Positions 3,996 to 64,000 of a DNA stretch of 64,000 nt are shown one piece after another. The number at the start of each line of letters is the position of its first letter. Within the stretch, counting starts at the first letter, position 1. The notes beneath the pieces are model-generated. The model did no database searches. It saw nothing but the letters and a program-made list of their open reading frames with translations, and was not told the DNA's origin. A program made the translations under genes and the position numbers. Source of the stretch: Squalus acanthias (lineage: Eukaryota); the NCBI GenBank assembly GCA_030390025.1, contig CM059432.1:45696001-45760000 (forward strand). Reading direction: 5' to 3'.

Positions 3996-5226
3996 GATTG
4001 TGTAACAGACTTTGCCAAACATTTTGCCACCCGAGATCTTCACACTTCTAGAAAAGTTGGAACTGCAATTGCTCAGCCAGACAGTCGTATTCCCACATTC
4101 TCAATTTCTTTATGCAGAGAGATGTTAGAGCATGAAATACTTTGTGACAGGAAGTAGTTGAGTCAGACAACATGGAGTGGAAATTAATTTCTGCCCGTTT
4201 TCGGGCCTGAAATAGGCGGCGCGCTTGAATTGCGCGTCAGACGCTCACCCAGAATTGGGCCTCGGGCCTCATTAGAGTATTGTTGACAAGCTACGGAAGT
4301 GAATTGGTCATCCAGAGGCTTTTAGATCAAAATATTTGCTTCTACATCAACCTTCTCATTTAAAAATATATAGTTGGTATTGACTACTGTAGGAACGGCT
4401 GAAATTAGGGGCCCAACTTTACCAGCTCTCTCCTCAAAGAATAAAAATATTAGCCAAGAGCTCTACCAAACTGGAGAACCCATACCTTATGAAAGAAACT
4501 GGAGAAAAAATAGACATCTAGCAAGTCAAAAAATGATTTACATGCAAGTCAAATTTAAATATTTTTGTAGCTGGAAACAATCTGCAAAGAAAATGCAGGA
4601 CTACAGTGGAGCTTTGCACCTTTATAAAACTTATCAAAACAACATCTGTAACCTGCAATTATCTTAAAATACAAACTAATTAAATAATTCTAAATATTTC
4701 CTTTGAACCGTTTCACTGATTTCATCATGGAATACTTTATCAGTTTTCTTTTCAGAAAAATCCTTGAAATATTAGCATATTTCCATTAAAACTTCGAAAA
4801 AACTGATAATGTGCATTGATCCTGAGTTACATTGATGCAGAATTTTACATTTGTACATTTAAATCAATCATAACAAAATGTGTGCTACCATTTTGTTATT
4901 TTTGACCATGACTCTTAGGGGTAAAAATTCAGTTGGTTGCGTCTCCCGTTAGCGCCTTAAATGGGCGCTAATGGGGCGTTAAGCCGCTAACGCCCGGGCG
5001 CGGCGCTGTTTGCGCCGCTCGAGAACTTAACTTGAGATTGTGCGGCGGCGCTAAAACTTACCGCTGCGACCACCTGCGCGCGCAGATTGTGACGTCAGTC
5101 CGTGGTGCAACGCCGTTGGGGCGCCCCGGAGCGGAAATTGAGTGGCGCCCCCTGCCTTACCGCCTGGCGCTTCCAACGACCGGAAGACTGGAACGTTATC
5201 AATCGGTCTGGGGCTGGGGGGGGCGC

Positions 5227-5234
5227 TATTTAAA
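5227..5234 (+). promoter_or_regulatory. TATA-like box for the transposase gene
   Basis: TATTTAAA about 200 nt upstream of the ATG, preceded by a G-rich GC-box; a (GA)n tract follows at about 5287-5324. Confidence 0.45.
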
Positions 5235-5429
5235 GGGGGCCTCTTCCTGTCTTTTTCTGTGGTCGACATTTATGCACCACTCGTTCTGAGAGAGAGAGAG
5301 AGATTCGGAGAGAGAGAGAGAGAGACTTCTACATTGACTCAACGCTTTGTGAGGTAGTTTTGCCTAGTTCATCCTAACTTTGCTGCTACTTTCGTTGCTG
5401 TACCTCATTACTTTTCTGGCAAAGAGAAG

Positions 5430-6590
5430 ATGGGGGCTGCAATGATTGGGGGCGTCGTCCTGCTCCAGCTCAATCGGAGCAGAGTGAGACGCAGACAGAG
5501 AGTGGCAATGATGGCCAGACGGAGGAGGCCCATCAGGCGCATGTACAGGAGAGCTTACCCTCCCAGGGTATATCGTGAACAGCTCTCCTACATCCACATG
5601 TCCGAGGAGCTGTGTTTGCGAAGGCTGCGATTCAGCAAGGAGGTGGTCACTGAGCTCTGCCACCTGCTGCAGCCAGATCTGCAGCCTCAGCTGAGGTCCA
5701 GGACGTCTCTGTCGGTGGCAGTGAAGGTCACAGTGGCCTTGAACTTCTACGCCACTGGCTCATTCCAAGCTGCTGTTGGGGACCTCGCCAATATCTCCCA
5801 GTTTGCGGTGCATCGCTGCATCTGGCAGGTCACCAATGCCCTCTTCACAAGGAGACGAGACTTCATCTCCTTCCCTATGACCCCAGACAAGCAGCATGAC
5901 CGTGCTATGGGCTTTGCGAGGGTAGCGGGCTTCCCCATGGTGCAGGGCGCCATTGACTGCACGCATGTGGCTTTGCGTGCTCCGCGAGAGAATGCAGAGG
6001 AGTTCCGGAACAGAAAAGGGTTCCATTCCTTGAATGTGCAGTTGGTCTGTGACCACAGACAGGTGATTCTCGCTGTCAATGCCCACTATCCGGGCAGCTG
6101 CCACGATGCTTTCATCCTGCGCCAGAGTACTGTGGCAGAAATTTTCGAGGCACCGCATCAGCCAGTCGGTTGGCTTCTGGGGGACAAGGGGTACGCATTG
6201 AGCACCTGGCTGATGACACCGCTCCGTGCGCCAAACACCCCTGCTGAGCTGCGGTACCAGGAAAGCCAACAAGCAACGAGGAACATTATTGAGCGCACAA
6301 TCGGCGTGCTCAAACAACGATTCCGCTGTCTGGACCATTCCGGAGGAGCCCTGCAGTACTCGCCTGAGCAAGTTTCCAAATTCGTAGTGGTGTGCTGCAT
6401 GTTGCACAACATGGCAATCCTCAGGACGCAGCCAATGCCACCAGGCCTTGCAGCACCACAAGAGGAGGAGGAGGAAGAGGAGGAACTGGCCGAGGACGAT
6501 GATCAGCAGCAGCACCAAGGCAGGAGGGCAGCCCACAATGGTCAAACTGCAAGGGCCGTCCGTCAACGACTAATAGCAAGCCGCTTCTAG
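5430..6590 (+). CDS. Harbinger (HARBI1-like) DDE transposase, 386 aa, uninterrupted
   Basis: Motifs GAIDCTHV, PGSCHDAFIL, LLGDKGY, IERTIGVLKQRFRCL, CCMLHN; N-terminal HTH-like region; acidic C-terminal tail. Confidence 0.95.
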   Translation: MGAAMIGGVVLLQLNRSRVRRRQRVAMMARRRRPIRRMYRRAYPPRVYREQLSYIHMSEELCLRRLRFSKEVVTELCHLLQPDLQPQLRSRTSLSVAVKVTVALNFYATGSFQAAVGDLANISQFAVHRCIWQVTNALFTRRRDFISFPMTPDKQHDRAMGFARVAGFPMVQGAIDCTHVALRAPRENAEEFRNRKGFHSLNVQLVCDHRQVILAVNAHYPGSCHDAFILRQSTVAEIFEAPHQPVGWLLGDKGYALSTWLMTPLRAPNTPAELRYQESQQATRNIIERTIGVLKQRFRCLDHSGGALQYSPEQVSKFVVVCCMLHNMAILRTQPMPPGLAAPQEEEEEEEELAEDDDQQQHQGRRAAHNGQTARAVRQRLIASRF

Positions 6591-6701
6591 GGCCCCTGCC
6601 AGTGCTACAAACACGAATCAACCCAGCACGCAACCCCTAAGCCGGCCAAGGCACCAATAATTCCAACCACCAGCCATGTATATTTTGAATACAGAAACTT
6701 A

Positions 6702-6857
6702 TTTATTGTACAAACTCTGTGTGTGTCAATTCCTCATGACAAACTCATAGAAATAAACACAAAAAAACAGTCAATAACATAACTGGTTCTCACAACCTGG
6801 AGATAATGTCCAAAACACTAAACAAAAGTTGGGCCATGAACCTCGGCCTTTAATAAA
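6702..6857. terminator. convergent polyA signals between the two Harbinger genes
   Basis: Minus-strand AATAAA at 6702-6707; plus-strand AATAAA at 6752-6757 and 6852-6857. Confidence 0.55.
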
Positions 6858-6884
6858 AAAATGACCAGCATTTTGGCACACCTC

Positions 6885-7952
6885 CTACTTTTTGCCCTTC
6901 GAGGGTGATCTCCTTCCCTTGCGCACTTCCCCCCTTCTAACCCTACTGCTCCTCCGTAATGGGACCTCAGTGGCTGCAGCAAGGCTGGTGGAAGGCTGCT
7001 GCTTGTCAGACCCTGACACTGCAGATGCCCCTGAAGGACGGCCTCGACCACTTCTGGGCCTGGAGGGCCCGGCTGCAGACTGCACCAACTCTGCATGGGC
7101 GGCAGCAGTCTGTCCTACAGGCGGTGGCAAGTGCAGTGGAGAAGTGACAGTGTTGGCAGCAGGAATGCTGTCATCGTGAGAGAGGACAGCAACTCCCTGC
7201 TCGCCCGACACACTGGCACTCCCACGGGGCAGCACTTCAGCATCCGGAGCAATTTGCCTGAGAACAGATTGCTGGCCTGCTGCGGCGCGGTGACAGCCCC
7301 GGGGACATGTGCACGAACCATCGAGGATGGCAGCAGTCAGTGCTCGCGTGGCCTCAATCTGAGTCTGCATGAGAGCAGGCTCAGATGGGTTCCTGGCAGC
7401 CAGTGACTGAATTGCAGCAGTAAGCTTTAGTGTGGCATCCGCCTGTGCTACAGCGAAGTGCTCCACACTCCTTGCCAGTGCCTCAATGCATTCGGGCACC
7501 CTTCCCACTGCACCCATGAGCTCAGTGTGCATGACCACCGCCTGGCTGTTCATTTCTGCAATCAGCCGCTCCTCCTCTGCGTCCATTGCATTAGGAGTGT
7601 CTGGCATACTCTCCCTCTGGGGAGAAGGCTCCCGTTCTTCCCTCCCCCCCCCCATGGCGTTGCTGCAGCCCGCTGGGTCCTGGAACTTCACCATCATCAG
7701 CCCCTTCCCCCCTGCTCCCCCGTTCTTCCCTCCCCCCCCCATGGCGTTGCTGCAGCCCGCTGGGTCCTGGAACTTCACCATCATCAGCCCCTTCCCCCCT
7801 GCTCCCCTCCGGGGAAGGCGTGTTCCCAGTGTGGCCATGGGCTTCCTCGGGAGAGGGTGGCACTGATGCTCCGGCTTCCTCTTCCTCCTCAGCTGCAGCA
7901 TCACTCCCAGTGGCAGCTTCAGGGACCATCTCCTCAGCTGGTGAATCACCAT
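6885..7952 (-). CDS. Harbinger Myb-like protein, exon 3 (apparent +1 frameshift at the C10 run 7644-7653)
   Basis: ctttcag|AT GGT GAT (phase 1) gives acidic DGDSPAEEMVPEAATGSDAAAEEEEE; with 9 G instead of 10 the frame continues through REEREPSPQ... to the basic tail ...RKGRRSPSKGKK* at 6885. Confidence 0.75.
   Translation of the reverse strand: MVIHQLRRWSLKLPLGVMLQLRRKRKPEHQCHPLPRKPMATLGTRLPRRGAGGKGLMMVKFQDPAGCSNAMGGGGKNGGAGGKGLMMVKFQDPAGCSNAMGGGREEREPSPQRESMPDTPNAMDAEEERLIAEMNSQAVVMHTELMGAVGRVPECIEALARSVEHFAVAQADATLKLTAAIQSLAARNPSEPALMQTQIEATRALTAAILDGSCTCPRGCHRAAAGQQSVLRQIAPDAEVLPRGSASVSGEQGVAVLSHDDSIPAANTVTSPLHLPPPVGQTAAAHAELVQSAAGPSRPRSGRGRPSGASAVSGSDKQQPSTSLAAATEVPLRRSSRVRRGEVRKGRRSPSKGKK
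7631..7807. repeat. 87/88-bp tandem duplication in Myb-gene exon 3
   Basis: Two near-identical units differing in C-run length (10 versus 9). Confidence 0.9.
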
Positions 7953-8111
7953 CTGAAAGCAGGGAGGTACAAGAGTGGCTTTAGCGTGAGGACAGGGTGG
8001 CAGTAAGGGAGGAATAAGTGCAGCGAGTTAGCAAGTTGGATTGAAAGTGTCAAAGGCTGGTATTGTGAGGGACAAGTGGAAGGACAGAGGACAAAAAGGT
8101 GATGACCTTAC

Positions 8112-8274
8112 CATTGCTGTCCACAACGGGGTCGGCGTCTCCAGTGGCGACGGGACCGATCACCCGGCTTGCCACAATCCTGTGGACGCGCTCCTCCAGA
8201 TCGCTGAGGGGTTGCAGCTGAAGCCGCCCTCCACCCGTCCGTTGCTGCTGTCTCCGATTATGAGCCAGCTTAGC
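8112..8274 (-). CDS. Harbinger Myb-like protein, exon 2
   Basis: tttttcttgcag|GCT AAG ...; AKLAHNRRQQQRTGGG (the RTGGG motif is typical of this family); donor AAT G|gtaagg; 163 nt. Confidence 0.88.
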
Positions 8275-8301
8275 CTGCAAGAAAAAGGACAGCATCTGAG
8301 T

Positions 8302-8410
8302 CAATATACAGCCATGGTCTTGCCTGATGTGCCTCCCATAGGTGAATAGCCCTTACAATATACAGCCATGGTCTTGCCTGATGTGCCTCCCATAGGTGAA
8401 TAGCCCTTAC
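8302..8410. repeat. perfect 54-bp tandem duplication in Myb-gene intron 1
   Basis: caatatacagccatggtcttgcctgatgtgcctcccataggtgaatagccctta x2, starting at 8302 and 8356. Confidence 0.95.
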
Positions 8411-8558
8411 TGTATGCAAAGTGTGGAATGTGTGTGTGTGTTTGATGAAAGGGCCATAGGTGTTGGATGAGTGTTGTGCATTGGGGTTTTAAGACCCTCT
8501 GGCCATAGAGTGAGGTTGAGATGGAGGGATGGAGAGGTATTGAGAAAAAGCCACTCAC

Positions 8559-8795
8559 CCTGACGACCCGAGTGAGGTCGTTGAACTTTTTGCGGCACTG
8601 GACATGGGTCCTGGGCACCATGCTCCTGGAGGAGACGCTCTGAGCCACCTCCCTCCACACTCTTCTGAACTCGCGTGGCAAAGGCCTCCTGCCACTCTCT
8701 GGGAACAGCATGCATCGTCTGCGCTCCACTGCGTCAACCAGAGCATCCAAGGCCCGCTCGGTGAAGCGATGAGCGCGTTCTCTCACCCTCTCCAT
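8559..8795 (-). CDS. Harbinger Myb/SANT-like DNA-binding protein, exon 1
   Basis: Kozak-like gccaagcATGG; RAHRFTERALDALV...VWREVAQSVS...RTHVQCRKKFNDL (Myb/SANT trihelix); donor AGG|gtgagt. Confidence 0.9.
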
Positions 8796-9390
8796 GCTTG
8801 GCAGCAAAATGGATTACAGGTCTCTCCAGGCTGAGATTCAAGGCTGCAATGAGCAGGGTGTGGCTGGGGAGCAAGTGGCCCCCCCCGCTTTAAGAAGTGT
8901 CCGGCGCCAGTGTGTCTGTGTTCCCTCGCTAACTGGCAGCAGCTGCGCTGCGCTCGTGCGCTGAGTTAGCGCCTCACTCCTAGGCCTTTGCGCCTTAAGA
9001 GAGGTGTGCAGCGCCTAATTTAGCGCTCCACTCACCTCCCGGGGCGGTAAAAGTGAAGTTTCCTGTCAGTGCCGATAATTAGCGCCAGGCGCTAATGTTT
9101 GCGCGCGGACGATATTTGCGCCCCAAATGGGGCGCGACCTAATTTCTACCCCTTAGAGTTCAGACATGTCTCTGATTAGGCCACAAAACTCCATATTGTG
9201 TAACAGTCTGCTTATGACACATTGAGAAAATGATCTGCATGGTTAATGTTTTCTAGTAATTGATTTTTTTCAACTTACGCATTGGGTAAGTTAGTGTTGA
9301 AGCTGTTTCCACTCCATGATTTCACATCCACTGATTTGAAAGAAAATGGACATACCAGAATTCAGGATCAACTTGGATCATGGAGATATG

Positions 9391-14011: not shown

Positions 14012-15726
14012 TTTTTTTTGACAGCGGTTCAGGAACCTGCTGTCAGCCAGCCGCAACGTGCCTTTCCCAATGGCGAGTCTGTGATCACAGATCGGACCCA
14101 ACCCGCAGAGGAAGGCGACCCAATTAAAGCAATTATTGGCTTGTTGACAGACCCTTAATAATGGTTTTAACCTTACCTTTAAACTTTAACTGCTCGCCCA
14201 CGGGGTCCACGCTGCTCATGGAGCACGTCTGTTTACCTGAGGTGGGAGTTGAATGGCCATTGAATCAGCTGATTAGTTGATAGCTTGAAATGTACTATAA
14301 AAGCTCCTGCCTCACAGCTGTTCACTTTCCAAGCTCAGAAGCTGTTGCTTACTCCATTTGGAACACAGATTGAGCTTTCTGCAGGCTGCAAGTGTTTGGA
14401 GAAAACTCTCCATCAAGTGTCACCTCATTGGGACAACCTCTCTCACCATTGACAGATTGCTTCTGTCATCTCAACTTCACCTGCCATCTATTCCATCAGC
14501 ATGGGTACCTTTTATACTGTTTCACCTTGGTCCTCAGAATCTGACCATGATTAGCCCCAACACCAGCAGCACCACCAGCAGCACCAAAAACAACACCAAC
14601 ATTCTCCGCAACCACCTAATGCTGCACAGGACAGAGGGCATCAGCACCTGAGCACATTGCTAACTGAGAGGCCAGGGATGGTCTCACCATGGCCAGATTT
14701 ACTTCACTTGACACTGTACACCCTGGCTACCACATGATGTGTTGGTGTGGCGCCACCCCACACCAACACCTTAAAGCATCCCTACAATGCCCAAGCCATT
14801 CCTTTCACACTCACCACCATTGCGGGGTGTACCGTTATGTCTCACCATTCACTGCAACTCACTAAGCCACTTCCAAAGGTGCACACAAATCTGTCCAAGA
14901 ACGCAAAGTGTTGAAAATAAAAGTTTCAATGTTTGACACCCCATTAACAGAAACTTTACATGAACATTGGATAAAACACCCAAGTGACTACTCTTGTGTG
15001 TTGTTAGTTGGTTTGATTGCACTAGGATGAGGGTGAGTGTGAGGGGTGGCTAGTGAGATGGGGAAGTGATAATGTAGATAGAGAGGGATGGGTGGAGGTG
15101 CAAGGTAAGTTGGTGTGAGTAAAGATGTGCAGGAGTAGGGTAGGGAAGGCAGAGTGATGGGGATGTGATGAGAGGCACAGCAGGATGAAGGTGAGTGTGG
15201 CTTTGTACTCACGTTTCCTGATCTAATGAGATCATTGAAAGGTTTGCTCCACTGCACCCAGGTCCTCCTGACGACATCCCTGCTTGTGCCCTCCTGTGCA
15301 ATGTGCAACCAGGCTGTGTTGCTATCCTGGGGAGGTCTCTTCCGCCCATGGGAAGGGAAGAGGACCTCCCTGCGTGCTGTGACTCCCTCCATAAGCATAT
15401 GGAGGGAGTCATAGGAGAACCTGGGTGCAGCCCTGCACCTCTGTGCAGTGATTGTCAGTGTTTGCAGCACCTCAATGCTGTAGAACACTGACAGCACAAA
15501 CATCAAATGTAATGTGGCCACGGTCCCTTTAAGGATCCCAGCTCAAGACTCGTCATGAATGACGTCACCAGACCCGCTCCATCTCATTGGGCTGGGTAAC
15601 GTGCTGGGTGGGCTTAATAGGCCCCATTAAGGTAAGTTCATTTTCAACCGTGGGATGGAGCCAGCAGCGGGGCCGCACCCCGCCACCAGCCGCACCGGAC
15701 CCGCTGAGGTGAGCAATATCTTGGCC
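14012..15726 (-). mobile_element. internally deleted Harbinger derivative with a decayed Myb exon
   Basis: ORF 14988-15521 PRFSYDSLHMLMEGV...AWLHIAQE...RTWVQWSKPFNDL; reverse-complement copy of 61417-63198; right terminus aatatcttggcc. Confidence 0.8.
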
Positions 15727-18287
15727 TTACTCTCCGCAGTACGCCCGCTTCATGGAAATGGGGCCCGCAGCACAATATTGGGGCCGCCTTGGGCCTCACC
15801 ATTCAGGGGCAGGGACTGAGCCCTGCACCTGCCACCGACCAACTTTCTAGGCCACAGTATATTCTGTTTTTACTTCAGATATCATTTTGCTTTGTTTTTG
15901 GAAAGAACTGGAGGTACAGCACCTCCACAAGGGTCAGGACAGTTGAGGAAAAGGAGCATGGAATAAGAAGATACAAAATATGCTGCATAAAAGGTTCTTA
16001 TGTACAATTATGCCAGTAGATAATGGTTCTTGGCTGGAGAACAATTAGAAGCTATTACTTTTTCTAAAATGGTGTGACATACAAGACACTATCGGCTAGA
16101 TTTTCCAATTGGCATTATTATAACACCAGCGCTAACCCATTTAAAATAAATAGAATACTGCTGCCAGCAAAGTAACACCTAGTAAAATCTAGGTTTATGG
16201 GCAATTCTTGTATGTGGATCAACCAGCATTAGATTCGCCAATAAGGAAAGCCCAACTATGCTCTCAATGCAGCGTGATTTATTGACAAGTCTTTCTTATC
16301 TGTTATTACAACACAGTATGTGGAATGAAGATATTAGGTCAGTATTGCAAATCATGTCAGCATGCATCAATATCTTTCAGCTAACCAATCTCTAAACTAA
16401 ACCACTGTAAAATATGATAGAAGGTCAAACGAAAAATTCATGGAATTCATGTTTTAAGTTTATGTGAGTCAGCACAGCCACAATATGGACAAATAAAAAA
16501 CACACACATTTTACAGTTTCTGTATTATATTCCAAAGCAGAAAGGAACATCTTTTATAAAATCATAAAGTCAGACTAAGATGTGGCAGAGCATTAGCATC
16601 ATTGACCTAGCAATGGCACCTATTAAATCAAAATTGAAGAAGTCTGTTGTGTGTATACAGTCAACATAGCTCAGAATATAAAAAGCCAGAGCTACAATAA
16701 AGCTTTGTAATTATAGTTTGTTTTTGGCATGGTTTAATTACTGTACTGATGAAAGACCAACTGATGAAATCAGCAGAGAAACTCTGAATAGTGTTAAGAG
16801 CTGGAAAGAGAGCAATCTGTGCAAGAAAATACGTCTTAGGTAGCAGGGAATTAGTCTCACTTGCGCAGCAAAGAACACCACTCCAATCCTTAAAAAACAC
16901 TGTAGTACATCCAAATATAATTCTGTTAAAGCACCACCTTTTTAAGGACTTTTATAAATTCATAAATAAAAATGCACAGCAGATTACATTTTAACAATGC
17001 ACACTACAAATCTCTTCAAATTCACATAGGGAATAGCAGCTCTCATATTATTCTTATCACTGTAGACAATGAAAAATGCTAAAAAGGTTAACACCATAAT
17101 GCAAACTTTCCAGTGCTAATTAACAGAACAAGTCCCATGTCAATTGTGGAGTTAGTTGGTCTTGACTGCTCATCCTCAGACTAAAGGATGCTGAATGGAG
17201 GATGATATTTAAAAAGAGTCAAATTTATACTTATATTCTACTCTTTTTCTTTCTTTCACAAATCAAATCCAATCTACCTCCTCCCCTCTCCAAGCTTACA
17301 TTTCTTCAGCTGGAAGGTCAAGGCAGCTCAACTTCTGTTGATAAATGACCTTGCATTTTCCGATCAGGTATGCCTCGTTAGAAAAGTGGTTGGAGATCTG
17401 TTACCCTGGATCTCCATTATGCACCTATTTCCAGCAAGTAATACATTGGGAGTAAGACGCATCTTCTTGAGATTGTTGGAAGATTCATTTAAATATTAAA
17501 ATGTGGGCGGGAACATCCTGGACGCAATTTCCCGATGTTCATGTGTGCAAGACATCCATGCATAATTGAACTGAACATCCAGGGTTGTTGGATAAATACA
17601 AAGTTGATTTAAAGAATAAGTTGATTTAAGGTATATTTCAGTAATTTCTTGATCTTGCTTGCACTTAGATTCTCATGAGCATTTGTGCAAAATTGTTCTA
17701 ATTTATTTTGCTTCCAGCAACATTACTAGTGGCAGATGGGAATTCCCAATCGGAATACCCTTATTGAGGGATGCCAGGCTATACAAGAGCTGGTCTGTGC
17801 CCATTCACCAGTACCCACACACCCTCTCTGCAGACAGAAGTGAATGTATCTCACTTTGGCAGGCCATTAGTGCAGGTGGAGGTCCTGTTCACAAAGGAAA
17901 CTGGGACCCTGGAACCAACCTCACCACTAAGGTATGTCAGTGCCTGACCAACCAGAATGTTGGGTGCCTCCTCAGAAGTACCCTGTGACAAAAACATACC
18001 CTTTTTCTGTGCTCATTTAAAAAAATATTTATATCACTAGAACTAGAAGAGGTTAAAACAGGACCAAACAGAGAAAAACACATTAGTTCAGTTCCGGATG
18101 AGCTGACTGGAATGTTTTTCATAAATGAAAAGGTTGAGGAACAAATTCAAGGTGTCAACTGGCCAGAGTTGCCACATTCAATGACAAGCATTTTTGCCAT
18201 TCTCAATGATGGCCTGCGTTCAATATTAATGAATGGCTGTTTGTTCCAATGAAATCATCTGCTGCTTTTGTGCCAGGAGCATCGCAA

Positions 18288-27112: not shown

Positions 27113-27116
27113 GCTC

Positions 27117-27446
27117 TCATGCAGTCTCAGTGTGATGAGACCCAAGCTCAGACCACTATCATGCAGTCTCAGCTTGATGAGACCCAAGCTCAGACCACTG
27201 TCATGCATTCTCAATGTGATGAGACCCAAGGTCAGACCACTATCATGCAGTCTCAGCTTGATGAGACCCAAGCTCAGACCACTGTCATGCAGTCTCAATG
27301 TGATGAGACCCAAGCTCAGACCACTATCATGCAGTCTCAGCGTGATGAGACCCAAGCTCAGACCACTATCATGCAGTCTCAGTGTGATGAGACCCAAGCT
27401 CAGACCACTGTCATGCAGTCTCAGCGTGATGCCACCTAAGCTCCGA
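27117..27446. repeat. 42-bp minisatellite, 7 full units plus 1 partial
   Basis: Unit tcatgcagtctcagtgtgatgagacccaagctcagaccacta starting at 27117, 27159, 27201 ... 27411. Confidence 0.95.
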
Positions 27447-27469
27447 GTGCTGCCATGGGACACCCGCTC

Positions 27470-28892
27470 CGACGTGTACTGGAGGGCTCCTCTCGAGCGG
27501 TCAAGTCAGCGGAACCGTTGCTTCAGTAGCCCGATTGGTCTGCTCGATGATGTTTCTGGTGGGAGCATGGCTCTTATTACGAGTGCTGGGCAGGAGTGGT
27601 GGGATTGTGGAGAGGAGGCATGAGCCAGGTGTAGAGTGGATAGCCTTTGTCTCCAAGCAGCCACCCTCCAGTTTGCTGTGATGGCTGGAAGATTGCTGGC
27701 ATAGCGGACTGACGCAGGATGAAGGCATCATGGCTGCTACCAGGATAGCGGGCATTGACCATCAGGAATCTCAGGGCATGATCGCACACCAACTGCACAT
27801 TAAGTGAGTGGCAGCCTTTGCGGTTACAGAAGATCTCAGGATTGTTATACGGCGACCACAAAGCCATGTGGGTGTAGTCGATGGCGCCCTGCACCATGGG
27901 GAAACCCACTATCCTGGCAAAGCCACATGCGTGCTCTTCCTGCTTCTCTCTGCTCAGAGAGAAGACAACATAGTCCCTTCTCCTGGTGTAGAGAGCCTCA
28001 GCGACCTCCCGGATGCAGCGATGGCTGGCAAACTGGGAGATGTTAGCTACGTCTCCTGCTGCAGACTGGAAGGATCCGCTGGCGAAGAAATTGAGCCACG
28101 GTGACCTTGAGGGCCACTGAAAGAGCTGTGGACACCCTGCTCTGAGGCTGCAGGTCTGGTTGCAGGAGGTGGCAGAGTTGTGTGACCACCTCCTTGGTGA
28201 AGCAGAGCCTCCTAATACACTGCTCTTCGCTTAAATGGATATAAGAGAAGTGCTCTCTGAAGACCCTAGGTGGGTAAGGCCTATTCGAGAGCCCTTTTGG
28301 CCTTCCTCCTCCTCCCTTTGCACGCATCTTCTCGTCTTCTTAGCTGCCTCCGCTTCTTCTCCCAAAGATCCTGGAGCGCGAGGTGGACTGCCAGTACAGC
28401 CCCCATGATTGTGAGCAAGTGTTGTGAGCAGAAGCCTTGAAATAATAATGAAGGCGTTCTCCACTTGCAACAACACTCCCTGTCACCTTAGGAACTTGAA
28501 AGAAGTTAATAAAGCTGCTGGAGTTGCAGAAAGTTGCACAGAGCCAGTCAAACTGAAGAAACATGTCAGGTGCAAGTTGTTGCTGATGATCCCTTTAAAT
28601 ACAGCTGCTGGAGCCTCCTTCCTGCTGGTCAACGCTTGCTCAGCTCATCGTAATTAAGGCATGCCGGTAAGTGGAGCGACGATGTCCAAACTCACAGATC
28701 AGGTGTCAATTGAGCATTGCACACTCACCGACGCACGATCTGCTTCATTTCAATGATTTCCGCGTTCGTTTCTATCAGCAGCACTGCCAGCCACCCCAAA
28801 ATGGCGGTCGCCGCGGGACCCGCCATCAGTTGACCATTTTTTCACCAGATTATGGCATTAAGGGTGGCAATAAGCCACCCAGTTTCTAGGCC
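27470..28892 (-). pseudogene. decayed Harbinger transposase with its upstream terminus
   Basis: ATGGGGGCT start at 28406; RPYPPRVFREHFSY, GFPMVQGAIDYTH, PGSSHDAFILRQS and WLLGDKGY in shifted frames; TIR-like agtttctaggcc ending at 28892. Confidence 0.88.
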
Positions 28893-43024: not shown

Positions 43025-43768
43025 GGCCCAAAAATTAGTGAGTGAGCCTTCGTGCGAGGGTAAGGCTTCCCCGCGATCTCTCACTGCGCGCTGGCTTTTT
43101 TATTCCCAGCTCGCACGAACTTGATGTTCTGGACAGCAGCTGTGCAGTGCTTTCGTATCCCACAGGCGCAGTTAATTCGTGCGAGCTGTGGGATCACGTG
43201 ACTCAGTTAGAGCCAATGGCAGCACACCATCTTTCATTCATAGCTTTCACAGCACGGCTGTGAAAGCTATGAATACTATACCCCCCAAAAGAACAGCTAA
43301 ACCTCAATTAATTTTTTTTTAAAAACCATCACATTAATAAAATAAGTATAGTTAAATAAATTAACCATTTTAAACAAAAAATTAAATTTTTGAAAAAATT
43401 TAAAATCTTTTAAAAAGTTATAAAAATAAACTTACCTGTCTTTAAAGTCTCTAAAAAAGATATACCTGTTAAAAAAAAATTCAAAATAATACTTAATTAA
43501 CTACTTACCTTGTTAAAAGAGGGTCTTACGCCTCCTTTCTTTATGTCTAAAATGTTCCATGCTTACCTGCGCGTTCAAAGCACTAAGTGCACTGCGTGCG
43601 CGCAGCCTGTAGCGCGCACGCGGTTCACCTAGGAACCGCCCCCTTTTGAATTCACCAAGTGCCAGTTTTCAGCGCATGCGCAGTGCATGCAGAAAACCGG
43701 CAATTGGAGACAGAATACGCGAGAGTACACAGTGCATACTCTCGCATAGCGGCACTAATTTTTGGGCC
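43025..43768. mobile_element. MITE with perfect 16-bp TIR and AAT TSD
   Basis: AAT|GGCCCAAAAATTAGTG ... CACTAATTTTTGGGCC|AAT. Confidence 0.92.
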
Positions 43769-61416: not shown

Positions 61417-63198
61417 GGCCACGATTTCGCCAGCGGAGGCGGGATCATGGTGGGAGAGGTGGTTGGCAGGTTCCGGTCCCGCTCCTGGCTGCAGCTGCTC
61501 TGCAAAAAGGATTTTCCATTCATAGGCCTTGTTAAGCCCACCCTGCAGGGTTGCTGGCCAATTAAAAGGAAGCAAGTCAGATGACGTCATTTGATGATGC
61601 GTCATCAGCCGGTTTCTTTAAAGGGACCATGGCCACATTCATTTTGACATTTGTGCTGTCAGTGTTCTGCAGCATTGAGGTGCTGCAAACACAGACAAGC
61701 ACTGCACAAAGGTGCATGGCTGCAGCCAGGCTCTCCCATGACTTCCTCCATATGATTATGGAGGGAGTCACAGCATGCAGGGAGGTCCTCTTCCTTTCCC
61801 ATGAGCGGAAGACACCTCCCCAGGAGATCAACGCAGCCTGGTTGCACATTGCACAGGAGGGCACAAGCAGGGATGTCGTCAGGAGGACCAGGCTGCACTA
61901 GTGCAAACCTTTCAATGATCTCAGTAGATTACGAAACGTTACTGCCAAGCCACACTCAACCTCATCCTGTTATGCCACTCATCACATCCCCATCACTCTG
62001 CCTTCCCGACCATACTCTTGCACATCTTTACTCACACCAACTTGCCTTGCACTTCCACCCATTCCTCTCTATCTACATTATCACTTCCCCATCTCACTAG
62101 CCACCCCTCACACTCACCCTCATCCTACTGCAAGCATACCAACTAAGAACACACAAGGGTAGGCACTTGGGTGGTTTATCCGATGGTCATGTGAAGTTTC
62201 TGGTAATGTGCGGTCAAATATTGAAATCTTTATTTTGAACACTTTGCATTCTTCGACAGTTTTGTGTGCACCTTTGGAAGTGGCTTAGTGAGTTGCAATG
62301 AATGGTGAGACATAACATCTCCCCCCCCCCCCACAATGGTGATGAGTGTGAAAGGAATGGCTTGGACATTGCAGGGATGCTTTATGGTGCTGGTGTGGGG
62401 TGGTGCCAACCTGCTGCATCATGTGGCAGCCAGGGTGTACAGTGTTAAGTGAAGCAAATCTGGAAATGGTGAGCCCATCACTGGCATCCCGGGCAGCAAT
62501 GTGGTCGGGTGCTGATGCCCTGTGTCCTGTGCAGCTTCTGTTGATTGCGGAGGAAGTTGGCGATGTTGGTGTGCCTGGTGATGTTGGTGTTGGGGCTGAT
62601 TGTGTTGGGATTCTGAGGACCAACGTGAGATTTTTTCCAAGGGCACCGATGTTGCTGGAATAGATGGCAGCTGAAGTTGAGATGACAGAAGCAATCTGTC
62701 AAAGGTGGGAGAGCTTGCTCCAAGGAGGTGACAGTGGATAGAGAGTTTACTCCAAACACTTGCAAACTGCATACAGCTCAAATGTTTCTTCCAAGTCCTG
62801 AAGGCTCAAGCTTCTGACATTGGAAAGTGAACAGCTGTGAAATGGTAGCTTTCATACCACTTTTGCAGCTGTCACCTATTCACAGCAATGGGAAGACATA
62901 GAGAACCCGACCTACTTACCTGATGTGATCTCCGAATGAAGTGAACCCTGTTAAAATGTGGTAAAATAGAAAAAGGCTGACAAAATAGTAGTAAACAAGC
63001 ACTTAACAAACAGTTAAGTATCTTAAATCCTCCCCCGCCGCTTGGTGTCGGGTCTGTTCTGAAATCGCAGACCCGACACTCTGGAAACTTACATGGAGGT
63101 GGGTTCGCAGCGGGTTCCCAACCCGCTGTCAATCACTTCGATTTTGATATCGGACCCGCCTCCAAACCCGCACTCTGAGCGCCGGAAAAATTCTGCCC
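61417..63198 (+). mobile_element. internally deleted Harbinger derivative (TTT TSD) with a decayed Myb exon
   Basis: TTT|GGCCACGATTTCGC ... GAAAAATTCTGCCC|TTT; ARLSHDFLHMIMEGV...AAWLHIAQE...RRT; sister copy of 14012-15726. Confidence 0.85.
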
Positions 63199-63201
63199 TT
63201 T

Positions 63202-63272: not shown

Positions 63273-64000
63273 GTACTGTGCTTCCTTGGTGCTAGTGTAA
63301 GTATGAAGCCCCAGATTGGCAACAGCGCTACTATTCCGAAACCAAAGCAAACTACTCGATGATCATTAAGGTCACTTTTTTATTGCTGATTTACAAACCT
63401 GAGGTTTTTGTGTATATTTCAGGTTCTATTTTTAGTGTTAAGAATCGGGGGAATTGGAAACCCAGAAATCCAGGTAAATTCAGAGAAAATCTGCTTTTAT
63501 TTGGAACATTTGAATGGAGTTGATGGCTCTATCGAAGCAATCCAAAAGAGTTCCAGCAATGGCCCAGATAATTACCCATCAAGCAGACAATACTACCACA
63601 TGCGCCACATTTGAAGGAGAGAATTACAATGAGGTAGTGCAAAAGATTCAGAGGAGGTAACAGATTTTTAATTTATTGTATAATTTTAAAAAACGTTCAA
63701 GGACAGACAGAACTGTGGGCAAGGCACAGATGACATCTTTTAGGCAGAGTTTTTATTTCCTTTCACGTTTTATGTACTTTCGATGCATACACAGTATACG
63801 CTTTTCTCCATCTTTAAAACTTTAAATGGGAATGTGCAGGCAGGAAGGAAATCATAAAAGAATCGGATTGTTTTCTCCACGTTGAAGTTTAAAGACATTT
63901 TGTAGTGCTAAAAGAAAGTCAGATATACCAAGCAAGAAGGTAACGTGCCCAATTTTGGGGCACCTTTCTGACAGATGTCAAGGAGAGGGTGTAGAAGAGA

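Follow-up and report, generated by a model that had tools for sequence, protein, structure and literature searches.

Among the closest described relatives of the element reported here, the zebrafish Harbinger3_DR / Harbinger3N_DR system was rebuilt from a consensus (Sinzelle et al. 2008, as cited in the accessible parts of PMC2836001, PMC9179366 and PMC9392472), and Harbinger-Snek is reported to number 269 intact copies in one sea-krait assembly in the text available (PMC8437027). For cartilaginous fishes, the accessible part of a 2022 survey gives no Harbinger in elephant shark and flags the other cartilaginous fishes for examination (PMC9179366), and a reef-shark genome paper lists Tourist/Harbinger as the commonest DNA transposons, the elements themselves not being described in its accessible text (PMC12498223). 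No published account of a full-length or polymorphic shark Harbinger was found in the library searched; subscription papers, supplements, Repbase or Dfam may hold such a family. The present analysis concerns a 64,000-nucleotide stretch of Squalus acanthias contig CM059432.1 (assembly GCA_030390025.1, positions 45,696,001 to 45,760,000; hereafter the window, in whose own numbering all positions are given). It contains a two-gene PIF/Harbinger DNA transposon that spans 4918-9152, approximately 4.2 kb, between two TTA triplets. With good confidence, the locus is best explained by a full-length cut-and-paste transposon that is filled on the window chromosome and absent from this site in contigs of two samples, that likely inserted within the span of present-day allelic variation, and that would be moved by a two-protein mechanism and, as assembled, be mobilised in trans. 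A first-pass annotation of this DNA, made from the letters alone, had held that intact vertebrate copies are uncommon, a view that the Harbinger-Snek count does not support.

Of 24 listed runs, 20 contained all or some of the stretch; they came from ten studies and carried five organism labels. Four runs were compared, all as contigs, and the empty-site junctions were read from the coordinates of the contig records, neither junction being among the joint rows listed. In run X2 (organism A, sample S2), a contig of 697 letters (record 16, depth 10.7) joined 4450-4913 to 9152-9385 with a single TTA and 0 substitutions in either flank. In run X1 (organism A, sample S1), a contig of 699 letters (record 1, depth 13.3) joined 4450-4917 to 9154-9385; it carried two extra letters at the target compared to X2, and flank differences at 4677 and 9199. 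Because contigs of two samples cross the site without the element, the insertion is polymorphic, with empty alleles in both organism-A DNA runs compared (2/2). Insertion polymorphism between individuals was a check that the first-pass annotation had proposed, and it came out in favor of a recently mobile family. The filled allele could be present in either sample as well, and the assembly could derive from one of the two.

The X1 allele consists of one TTA plus the last two letters of the second, and the chance that it is the footprint of an imprecise excision was judged to be even. Such a footprint would be unusual, because mPing with matching target-site duplications (TSDs) is reported, in the accessible text, not to leave both duplications in any case (PMC4561436). 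The extra letters could also come from a slip of two letters or from a quirk of reporting. Independent reuse of the target site is another possible origin of the allele.

The ends of the element were taken as fixed because both the empty-site contigs and a jump in depth at either end place them. The terminal and shared features are as follows.

4915 to 4917, no strand: left TSD, TTA (from the sequence, and from the empty site of run X2, which has just one TTA)
4918 to 4929, plus strand: 5' terminal inverted repeat (TIR), 12 bp (11/12 match to 9141-9152)
4918 to 5260, no strand: 5' subterminal region, CpG-rich, with repeated TAGCGCC/GGCGCTA motifs that are predicted binding sites of the Myb protein (from the CpG observed/expected ratio, 1.18, and the motif count)
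6702 to 6857: convergent 3' ends with AATAAA, on the minus strand at 6707-6702 and on the plus strand at 6752 and 6852 (predicted signals)
9141 to 9152, minus strand: 3' TIR, 12 bp (11/12 match to 4918-4929)
9153 to 9155, no strand: right TSD, TTA (from the sequence and the empty-site contigs)

The short TIRs lie precisely where the empty-site contigs place the ends of the element, and the 3-bp TSD, usually TWA in PIF/Harbinger, is TTA on both sides and a single TTA in the X2 empty allele. The first-pass annotation had named both the TTA duplications and the 12-bp TIRs, and these were confirmed at the positions above, as were its TATA-like box (found at 5227) and its polyadenylation signals (6752 and 6852 on the plus strand, 6707 on the minus strand). 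A TIR/TSD pair was rejected as sole proof of an element, the count in the window not being beyond chance: four pairs of such kind were found, compared to 1.43 on average over 30 shuffles (range 0-4, with one shuffle reaching four). The empty target is near-palindromic at 10/11 central positions, being a single site from which no consensus is derivable. TAGCGCC/GGCGCTA motifs were found four times in the 343 nt of the 5' end, three times in the 253 nt of the 3' end and not at all in the 3,366 nt of the interior; by analogy with the described systems, the Myb-like protein would bind the ends, likely at these TAGCGCC-type subterminal repeats. The two element ends had CpG observed/expected ratios of 1.18 and 1.05, compared to 0.57 for the transposase, 0.38 for Myb exon 3 and 0.37 for the rest of the window, so that the earlier remark that many CpGs are retained holds for the ends and fails for the transposase and Myb exon 3. 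All testable defining features of PIF/Harbinger were found, and the element is a member of this known superfamily.

The transposase gene lies on the plus strand.

5227 to 5234, plus strand: TATA-like box TATTTAAA of the transposase gene (predicted from the sequence motif)
5354 to 5424, plus strand: predicted intron of 71 nt within the 5' untranslated leader (GT donor, AG 5 bases ahead of the ATG and a branch-like site at 5374)
5430 to 6590, plus strand: transposase open reading frame (ORF), 386 amino acids, open (DDE_Tnp_4 match; D176, D226, D252 and E288 present)

The uninterrupted 386-residue DDE transposase of the first-pass annotation was borne out at 5430-6590, with profile matches to DDE_Tnp_4 (E-value 5.6e-38) and Plant_tran (E-value 7.3e-12), as is typical of a Harbinger-type DDE domain; an open transposase gene is one of the two expected of an autonomous copy. 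D176, D226, D252 and E288 are the residues that we take to be the catalytic columns. The same 11 letters as in the TATA-like region precede a decayed sister transposase at 28601-28591. A total of 360 relatives were found at an E-value of 1e-20 or better among 3,524 candidates. Of the 120 listed, 112 are named from sharks and rays, and the best identity among those listed was 65%. The closest listed relatives are all labelled 'putative nuclease HARBI1' (automatic names), none within 90% identity, and D/D/E is kept in 52/104, several being without catalytic residues. In a quick tree of 38 rows, chosen from 121 for length and spread, the transposase and six Pristiophorus (sawshark) proteins formed a 7-row branch (support 97) nested in a 31-row cartilaginous-fish branch (support 99). 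Vertical descent is the simple reading of these sequence relationships, because the listed relatives are overwhelmingly from sharks and rays and because the tree places the transposase among sawshark proteins. Of the 17 listed differences within the transposase, 10 were synonymous compared to 23% expected (p 0.002), a test of limited weight that used 40 of 190 difference rows and ignored transition bias; the excess is consistent with purifying selection between subfamilies. No solved structure matching the transposase profile was found. Two ray proteins, P0004 and P0005 (Mobula and Narcine), formed a tight, short-branched pair near the transposase clade with the catalytic residues lost and are possibly a ray-specific domesticated transposase, and several further short-branched groups across sharks and rays resemble this pattern.

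The second gene is separate from the transposase gene and convergent to it, and carries a Myb/SANT domain (Myb_DNA-bind_5, E-value 5.4e-9).

8889 to 8894, minus strand: TATA-like CTTAAA before the Myb-like gene (predicted from the sequence motif)
8559 to 8795, minus strand: Myb-like exon 1, Myb/SANT DNA-binding domain (Myb_DNA-bind_5; 74 relatives)
8275 to 8558, minus strand: Myb-like intron 1, predicted, GT-AG, 284 nt (splice signals)
8112 to 8274, minus strand: Myb-like exon 2 (relatives align here)
7953 to 8111, minus strand: Myb-like intron 2, predicted, GT-AG, 159 nt (splice signals)
6885 to 7952, minus strand: Myb-like exon 3, with its frame shifted in the assembly (stop codon at 7591-7593; the C-terminal half, which is conserved, lies in another frame as far as 6885)
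7631 to 7807, no strand: tandem duplication in exon 3, with units of 88 and 87 nt (10-C run at 7644-7653 in the 88-nt unit compared to 9 C in its twin)

Intron 1 contains a perfect 54-nt tandem duplication at 8302-8409. Exons 1 and 2 amount to 400 nt. One extra C within 7644-7653 shifts the frame of exon 3 as assembled, and with the sole AG acceptor in the scanned range (7953) the product stops at 253 amino acids, short of the conserved end to which an autonomous copy would be open; the full frame would be approximately 488 amino acids if the run had one C fewer. Thus the convergent spliced Myb/SANT gene of the first-pass annotation stands as to domain, orientation and GT-AG introns (8558-8275 and 8111-7953), but it is not uninterrupted. 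The complete working system that had been claimed was not upheld, since the Myb gene is frameshifted in the assembled sequence, and an intact working system is not established.

The position of the frameshift was located with 75 Myb-like proteins (74 relatives plus P0006) aligned to the Myb region. Upstream of the C run, 2/75 matched exon 3 in the spliced frame; downstream of it, 6/75 matched in a different frame; and P0124 crossed the run in both frames (residues 234-264, then 264-553; best E-value 4e-23). None of the 75 matched the second frame upstream of the C run. A start of exon 3 at 7954, which would give an open product of 489 amino acids, was rejected, since no AG acceptor serves it and the initial third of exon 3 would then be read in a frame for which no relative gives a match. 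The C-terminal ORF of 355 amino acids found no relatives among 8,000 candidates in a word-indexed search and gave Atlas leads of 0.77 and 0.76 only, the homology having come from the alignments of Myb-like proteins. A complex prediction of transposase residues 30-340 with the Myb C-terminal helices, run without alignments, scored 0.01. No listed run is recorded as RNA; run X17, the one compared run that is guessed to be RNA, covers both Myb introns, and none of the 15 joint rows listed for it, out of 58, was a splice joint, a result without weight for or against splicing. The 253-residue product keeps the DNA-binding domain and is without the helical C-terminal half and the basic tail. Loss of Myb function in this form is likely by analogy, because the Myb protein of a domesticated plant pair is reported, in the text available, to need its C-terminal part for binding the transposase-derived partner (PMC5339849).

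Whether the extra C is a real mutation or an assembly error was considered evenly balanced. The window copy could accordingly be intact and autonomous, with the tenth C at 7644-7653 an assembly homopolymer error and a true Myb-like protein of approximately 488 amino acids, and this explanation was given slightly less than an even chance. It draws on the 9 C of the twin unit, on the 99.75%-alike copy of run X6, which has one letter fewer at 7644, and on the flank run at 4505, which is one A shorter in both organism-A runs than in the window, a hint of homopolymer errors in the assembly or else a private indel. However, long G/C runs slip in vivo too, other run lengths occur in the family (run X17 has three letters fewer at 7733), and the one-letter gap at 7644 is shown by only four contigs in X1 and three in X2.

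The family to which the element belongs is large. Contigs matching it at 90% or more numbered 26,666 in X1 and 39,920 in X2, with the flanks covered by one contig each. Of the matching contigs, 22% were at least 99% alike and 43-45% only 90-95% alike. Calculated as summed depth divided by flank depth and by 31, the floor for the family is, in order of magnitude, a thousand loci, a figure that takes in sister subfamilies and deleted derivatives (summed depth is no copy number). In run X6 (organism B, 184 records), pieces over 5226-9012 differed by 9 substitutions in 3,613 letters (99.75% alike) and did not cover the window flanks. These pieces have different flanks and are one letter shorter at 7644, so a closely similar sister copy, its Myb frame open at that position, is present at another locus. 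This copy and the two empty alleles support the earlier claim of a recently mobile family.

It is nearly an even matter, falling a little to the negative side, whether the family is now dormant, the insertion being an old segregating allele and slow shark mutation making old copies look young. At the rate of 7e-10 per base per generation given for epaulette shark in the accessible text (a wide interval, from a different species; PMC10587355), the 0.25% divergence between two copies corresponds to approximately 1.8 million generations. Near-identity is thus weak evidence of youth, since shark mutation is slow, and 'recent' is a relative term. The flank haplotypes differ to a similar degree (2 in approximately 700 letters in X1), runs of the five organism labels hold 33-85% of the sampled words (43-48% for organisms C, D and E), and the interior of the element is CpG-depleted. 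Set against dormancy are the X2 empty haplotype, with 0 substitutions in 697 letters compared to the filled one, the undamaged transposase and ends, and the two extra letters of X1 at the exact site, which may record a later excision. The family itself has a long history: approximately 45% of its contigs match at just 90-95%, and CpG is depleted in the coding interior.

The preferred explanation remains a full-length element, mobile within the span of present-day alleles and, as assembled, mobilised in trans. By analogy with zebrafish and rice work (accessible parts of PMC2836001, PMC9392472 and PMC4561436), the Myb-like protein would bind the subterminal repeats and bring the transposase into the nucleus and to the element ends, where the transposase would make a staggered cut at TTA and insert the element at a palindromic TWA site. 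As assembled, the element would supply a working-looking transposase and a 253-residue Myb protein and would be mobilised in trans by open-frame sister copies such as the one in X6; if the tenth C is real, the short Myb protein might, speculatively, compete for the ends.

Several observations weigh against this explanation. The filled allele was seen in none of the four runs compared, in which contigs show presence and not absence. Since Harbinger excision is usually precise, the clean empty allele could predate the insertion or be the product of a later excision. The missing A at 4505, the span of generations implied by the divergence between copies, the long history of the family and the limited weight of the synonymous test belong on the same side. 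A stronger claim, that a shark living today harbours a naturally active vertebrate Harbinger family that continues to move, with three alleles at the locus (filled, clean empty, and TTA with a two-letter footprint) and open two-gene source copies, is tentative and was considered rather unlikely. If true, it would offer a natural transposase/Myb pair that needs no reconstruction to function, and a system of markers for animals in which point mutations are very scarce. A domesticated host pair of the HARBI1/NAIF1 kind, or an element placed by misassembly, is highly improbable: although the database relatives all bear the name 'putative nuclease HARBI1' and only half of those compared keep D/D/E, a fixed single-copy gene is excluded by the one-TTA empty alleles, the TIRs and related contigs in the tens of thousands, domestication being refuted by these contig data, and an exact duplication of the empty site's TTA would not be expected of a misjoin.

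In the surrounding window, minus-strand kinase exons at approximately 55.3-42.4 kb and a CARD exon at approximately 20.5 kb place the element approximately 11 kb downstream of a gene whose kinase-CARD layout fits RIPK2; we take this to be the gene, in agreement with the location given by the first-pass annotation. An exon-like stretch bounded by AG and GT lies at approximately 63420-63655 on the plus strand, upstream of the RIPK2-like gene and on the opposite strand.

The first-pass annotation had also proposed the element as a source of the Harbinger-like derivatives in the window. Its sole sizeable match in the window, at 28278-27458, was a decayed transposase of 71% identity that contains frameshifts and stops and ends differently. 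Elsewhere in the window, the element's first 343 and last 353 bases gave only chance-level hits of 11-19 letters. The element was therefore rejected as the parent of the other Harbinger pieces, which have other ends; their descent from it is excluded, and cross-mobilisation may occur. Two Myb-only remnants near 15.2-15.4 and 61.7-61.9 kb have 34-43% protein identity to its Myb and terminate in ends of the GGCC type. The decayed sister Harbinger extends over 27458-28892 on the minus strand, comprising a 5' end and transposase truncated by a minisatellite at approximately 27114-27457. Two related elements, at 14270-15853 (minus strand) and 61417-63200 (plus strand), are 83% alike over 1.4 kb; both lack a transposase and have GGCC-type ends, a TTAAAGGG-type box and the remnant of a Myb/SANT exon. 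A stretch of approximately 740 bp at 43025-43768, with 12-bp GGCC-type inverted ends, AAT/ATT flanks and high CpG, is likely a Tourist-like MITE (a miniature inverted-repeat transposable element) of another family. At 1285-2170, a GIY-YIG (Penelope-like) piece interrupts a CR1-type long interspersed nuclear element. In run X6, a loose end behind a Harbinger right end matched 27/28 letters of 1295-1322 by eye, which suggests that a Harbinger relative inserted into an element of the Penelope-like type, apparently not at a TWA triplet.

The architecture and mechanism of this element are already known, and what is added is the polymorphism evidence and a possible footprint allele. The locus gives direct evidence of a full-length two-gene family mobile within the span of allelic variation in a shark, near an immune-signalling gene. 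If natural open copies were to excise in cells, they would provide a vertebrate Harbinger pair for work on mechanism and structure. The closest listed sequences, the 'putative nuclease HARBI1' models of Pristiophorus japonicus and other elasmobranchs, reach up to 65% identity; in contrast to the present element they carry automatic names with no element structure attached, and none is within 90%. The accessible accounts of rice Ping/Pong/mPing (PMC2836001, PMC4561436) share with it the TWA duplication, two proteins, mostly precise excision and mobilisation in trans, although these are plant elements. Harbinger-Snek of sea kraits (accessible text of PMC8437027), compared by description only, is likewise a high-copy vertebrate two-gene family with intact copies, one-gene variants and short derivatives; it is reported to have been acquired horizontally, with its closest relatives in sea urchins, whereas the shark element fits vertical descent. 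Harbinger3_DR, the working model, is alike in its separate DDE transposase and Myb/SANT genes, 3-bp duplication and extended target preference. Compared by description only, and from what is accessible on the zebrafish system, the difference is that Harbinger3_DR is a consensus reconstruction, whereas the shark element occurs naturally, and the population also carries alleles without it.

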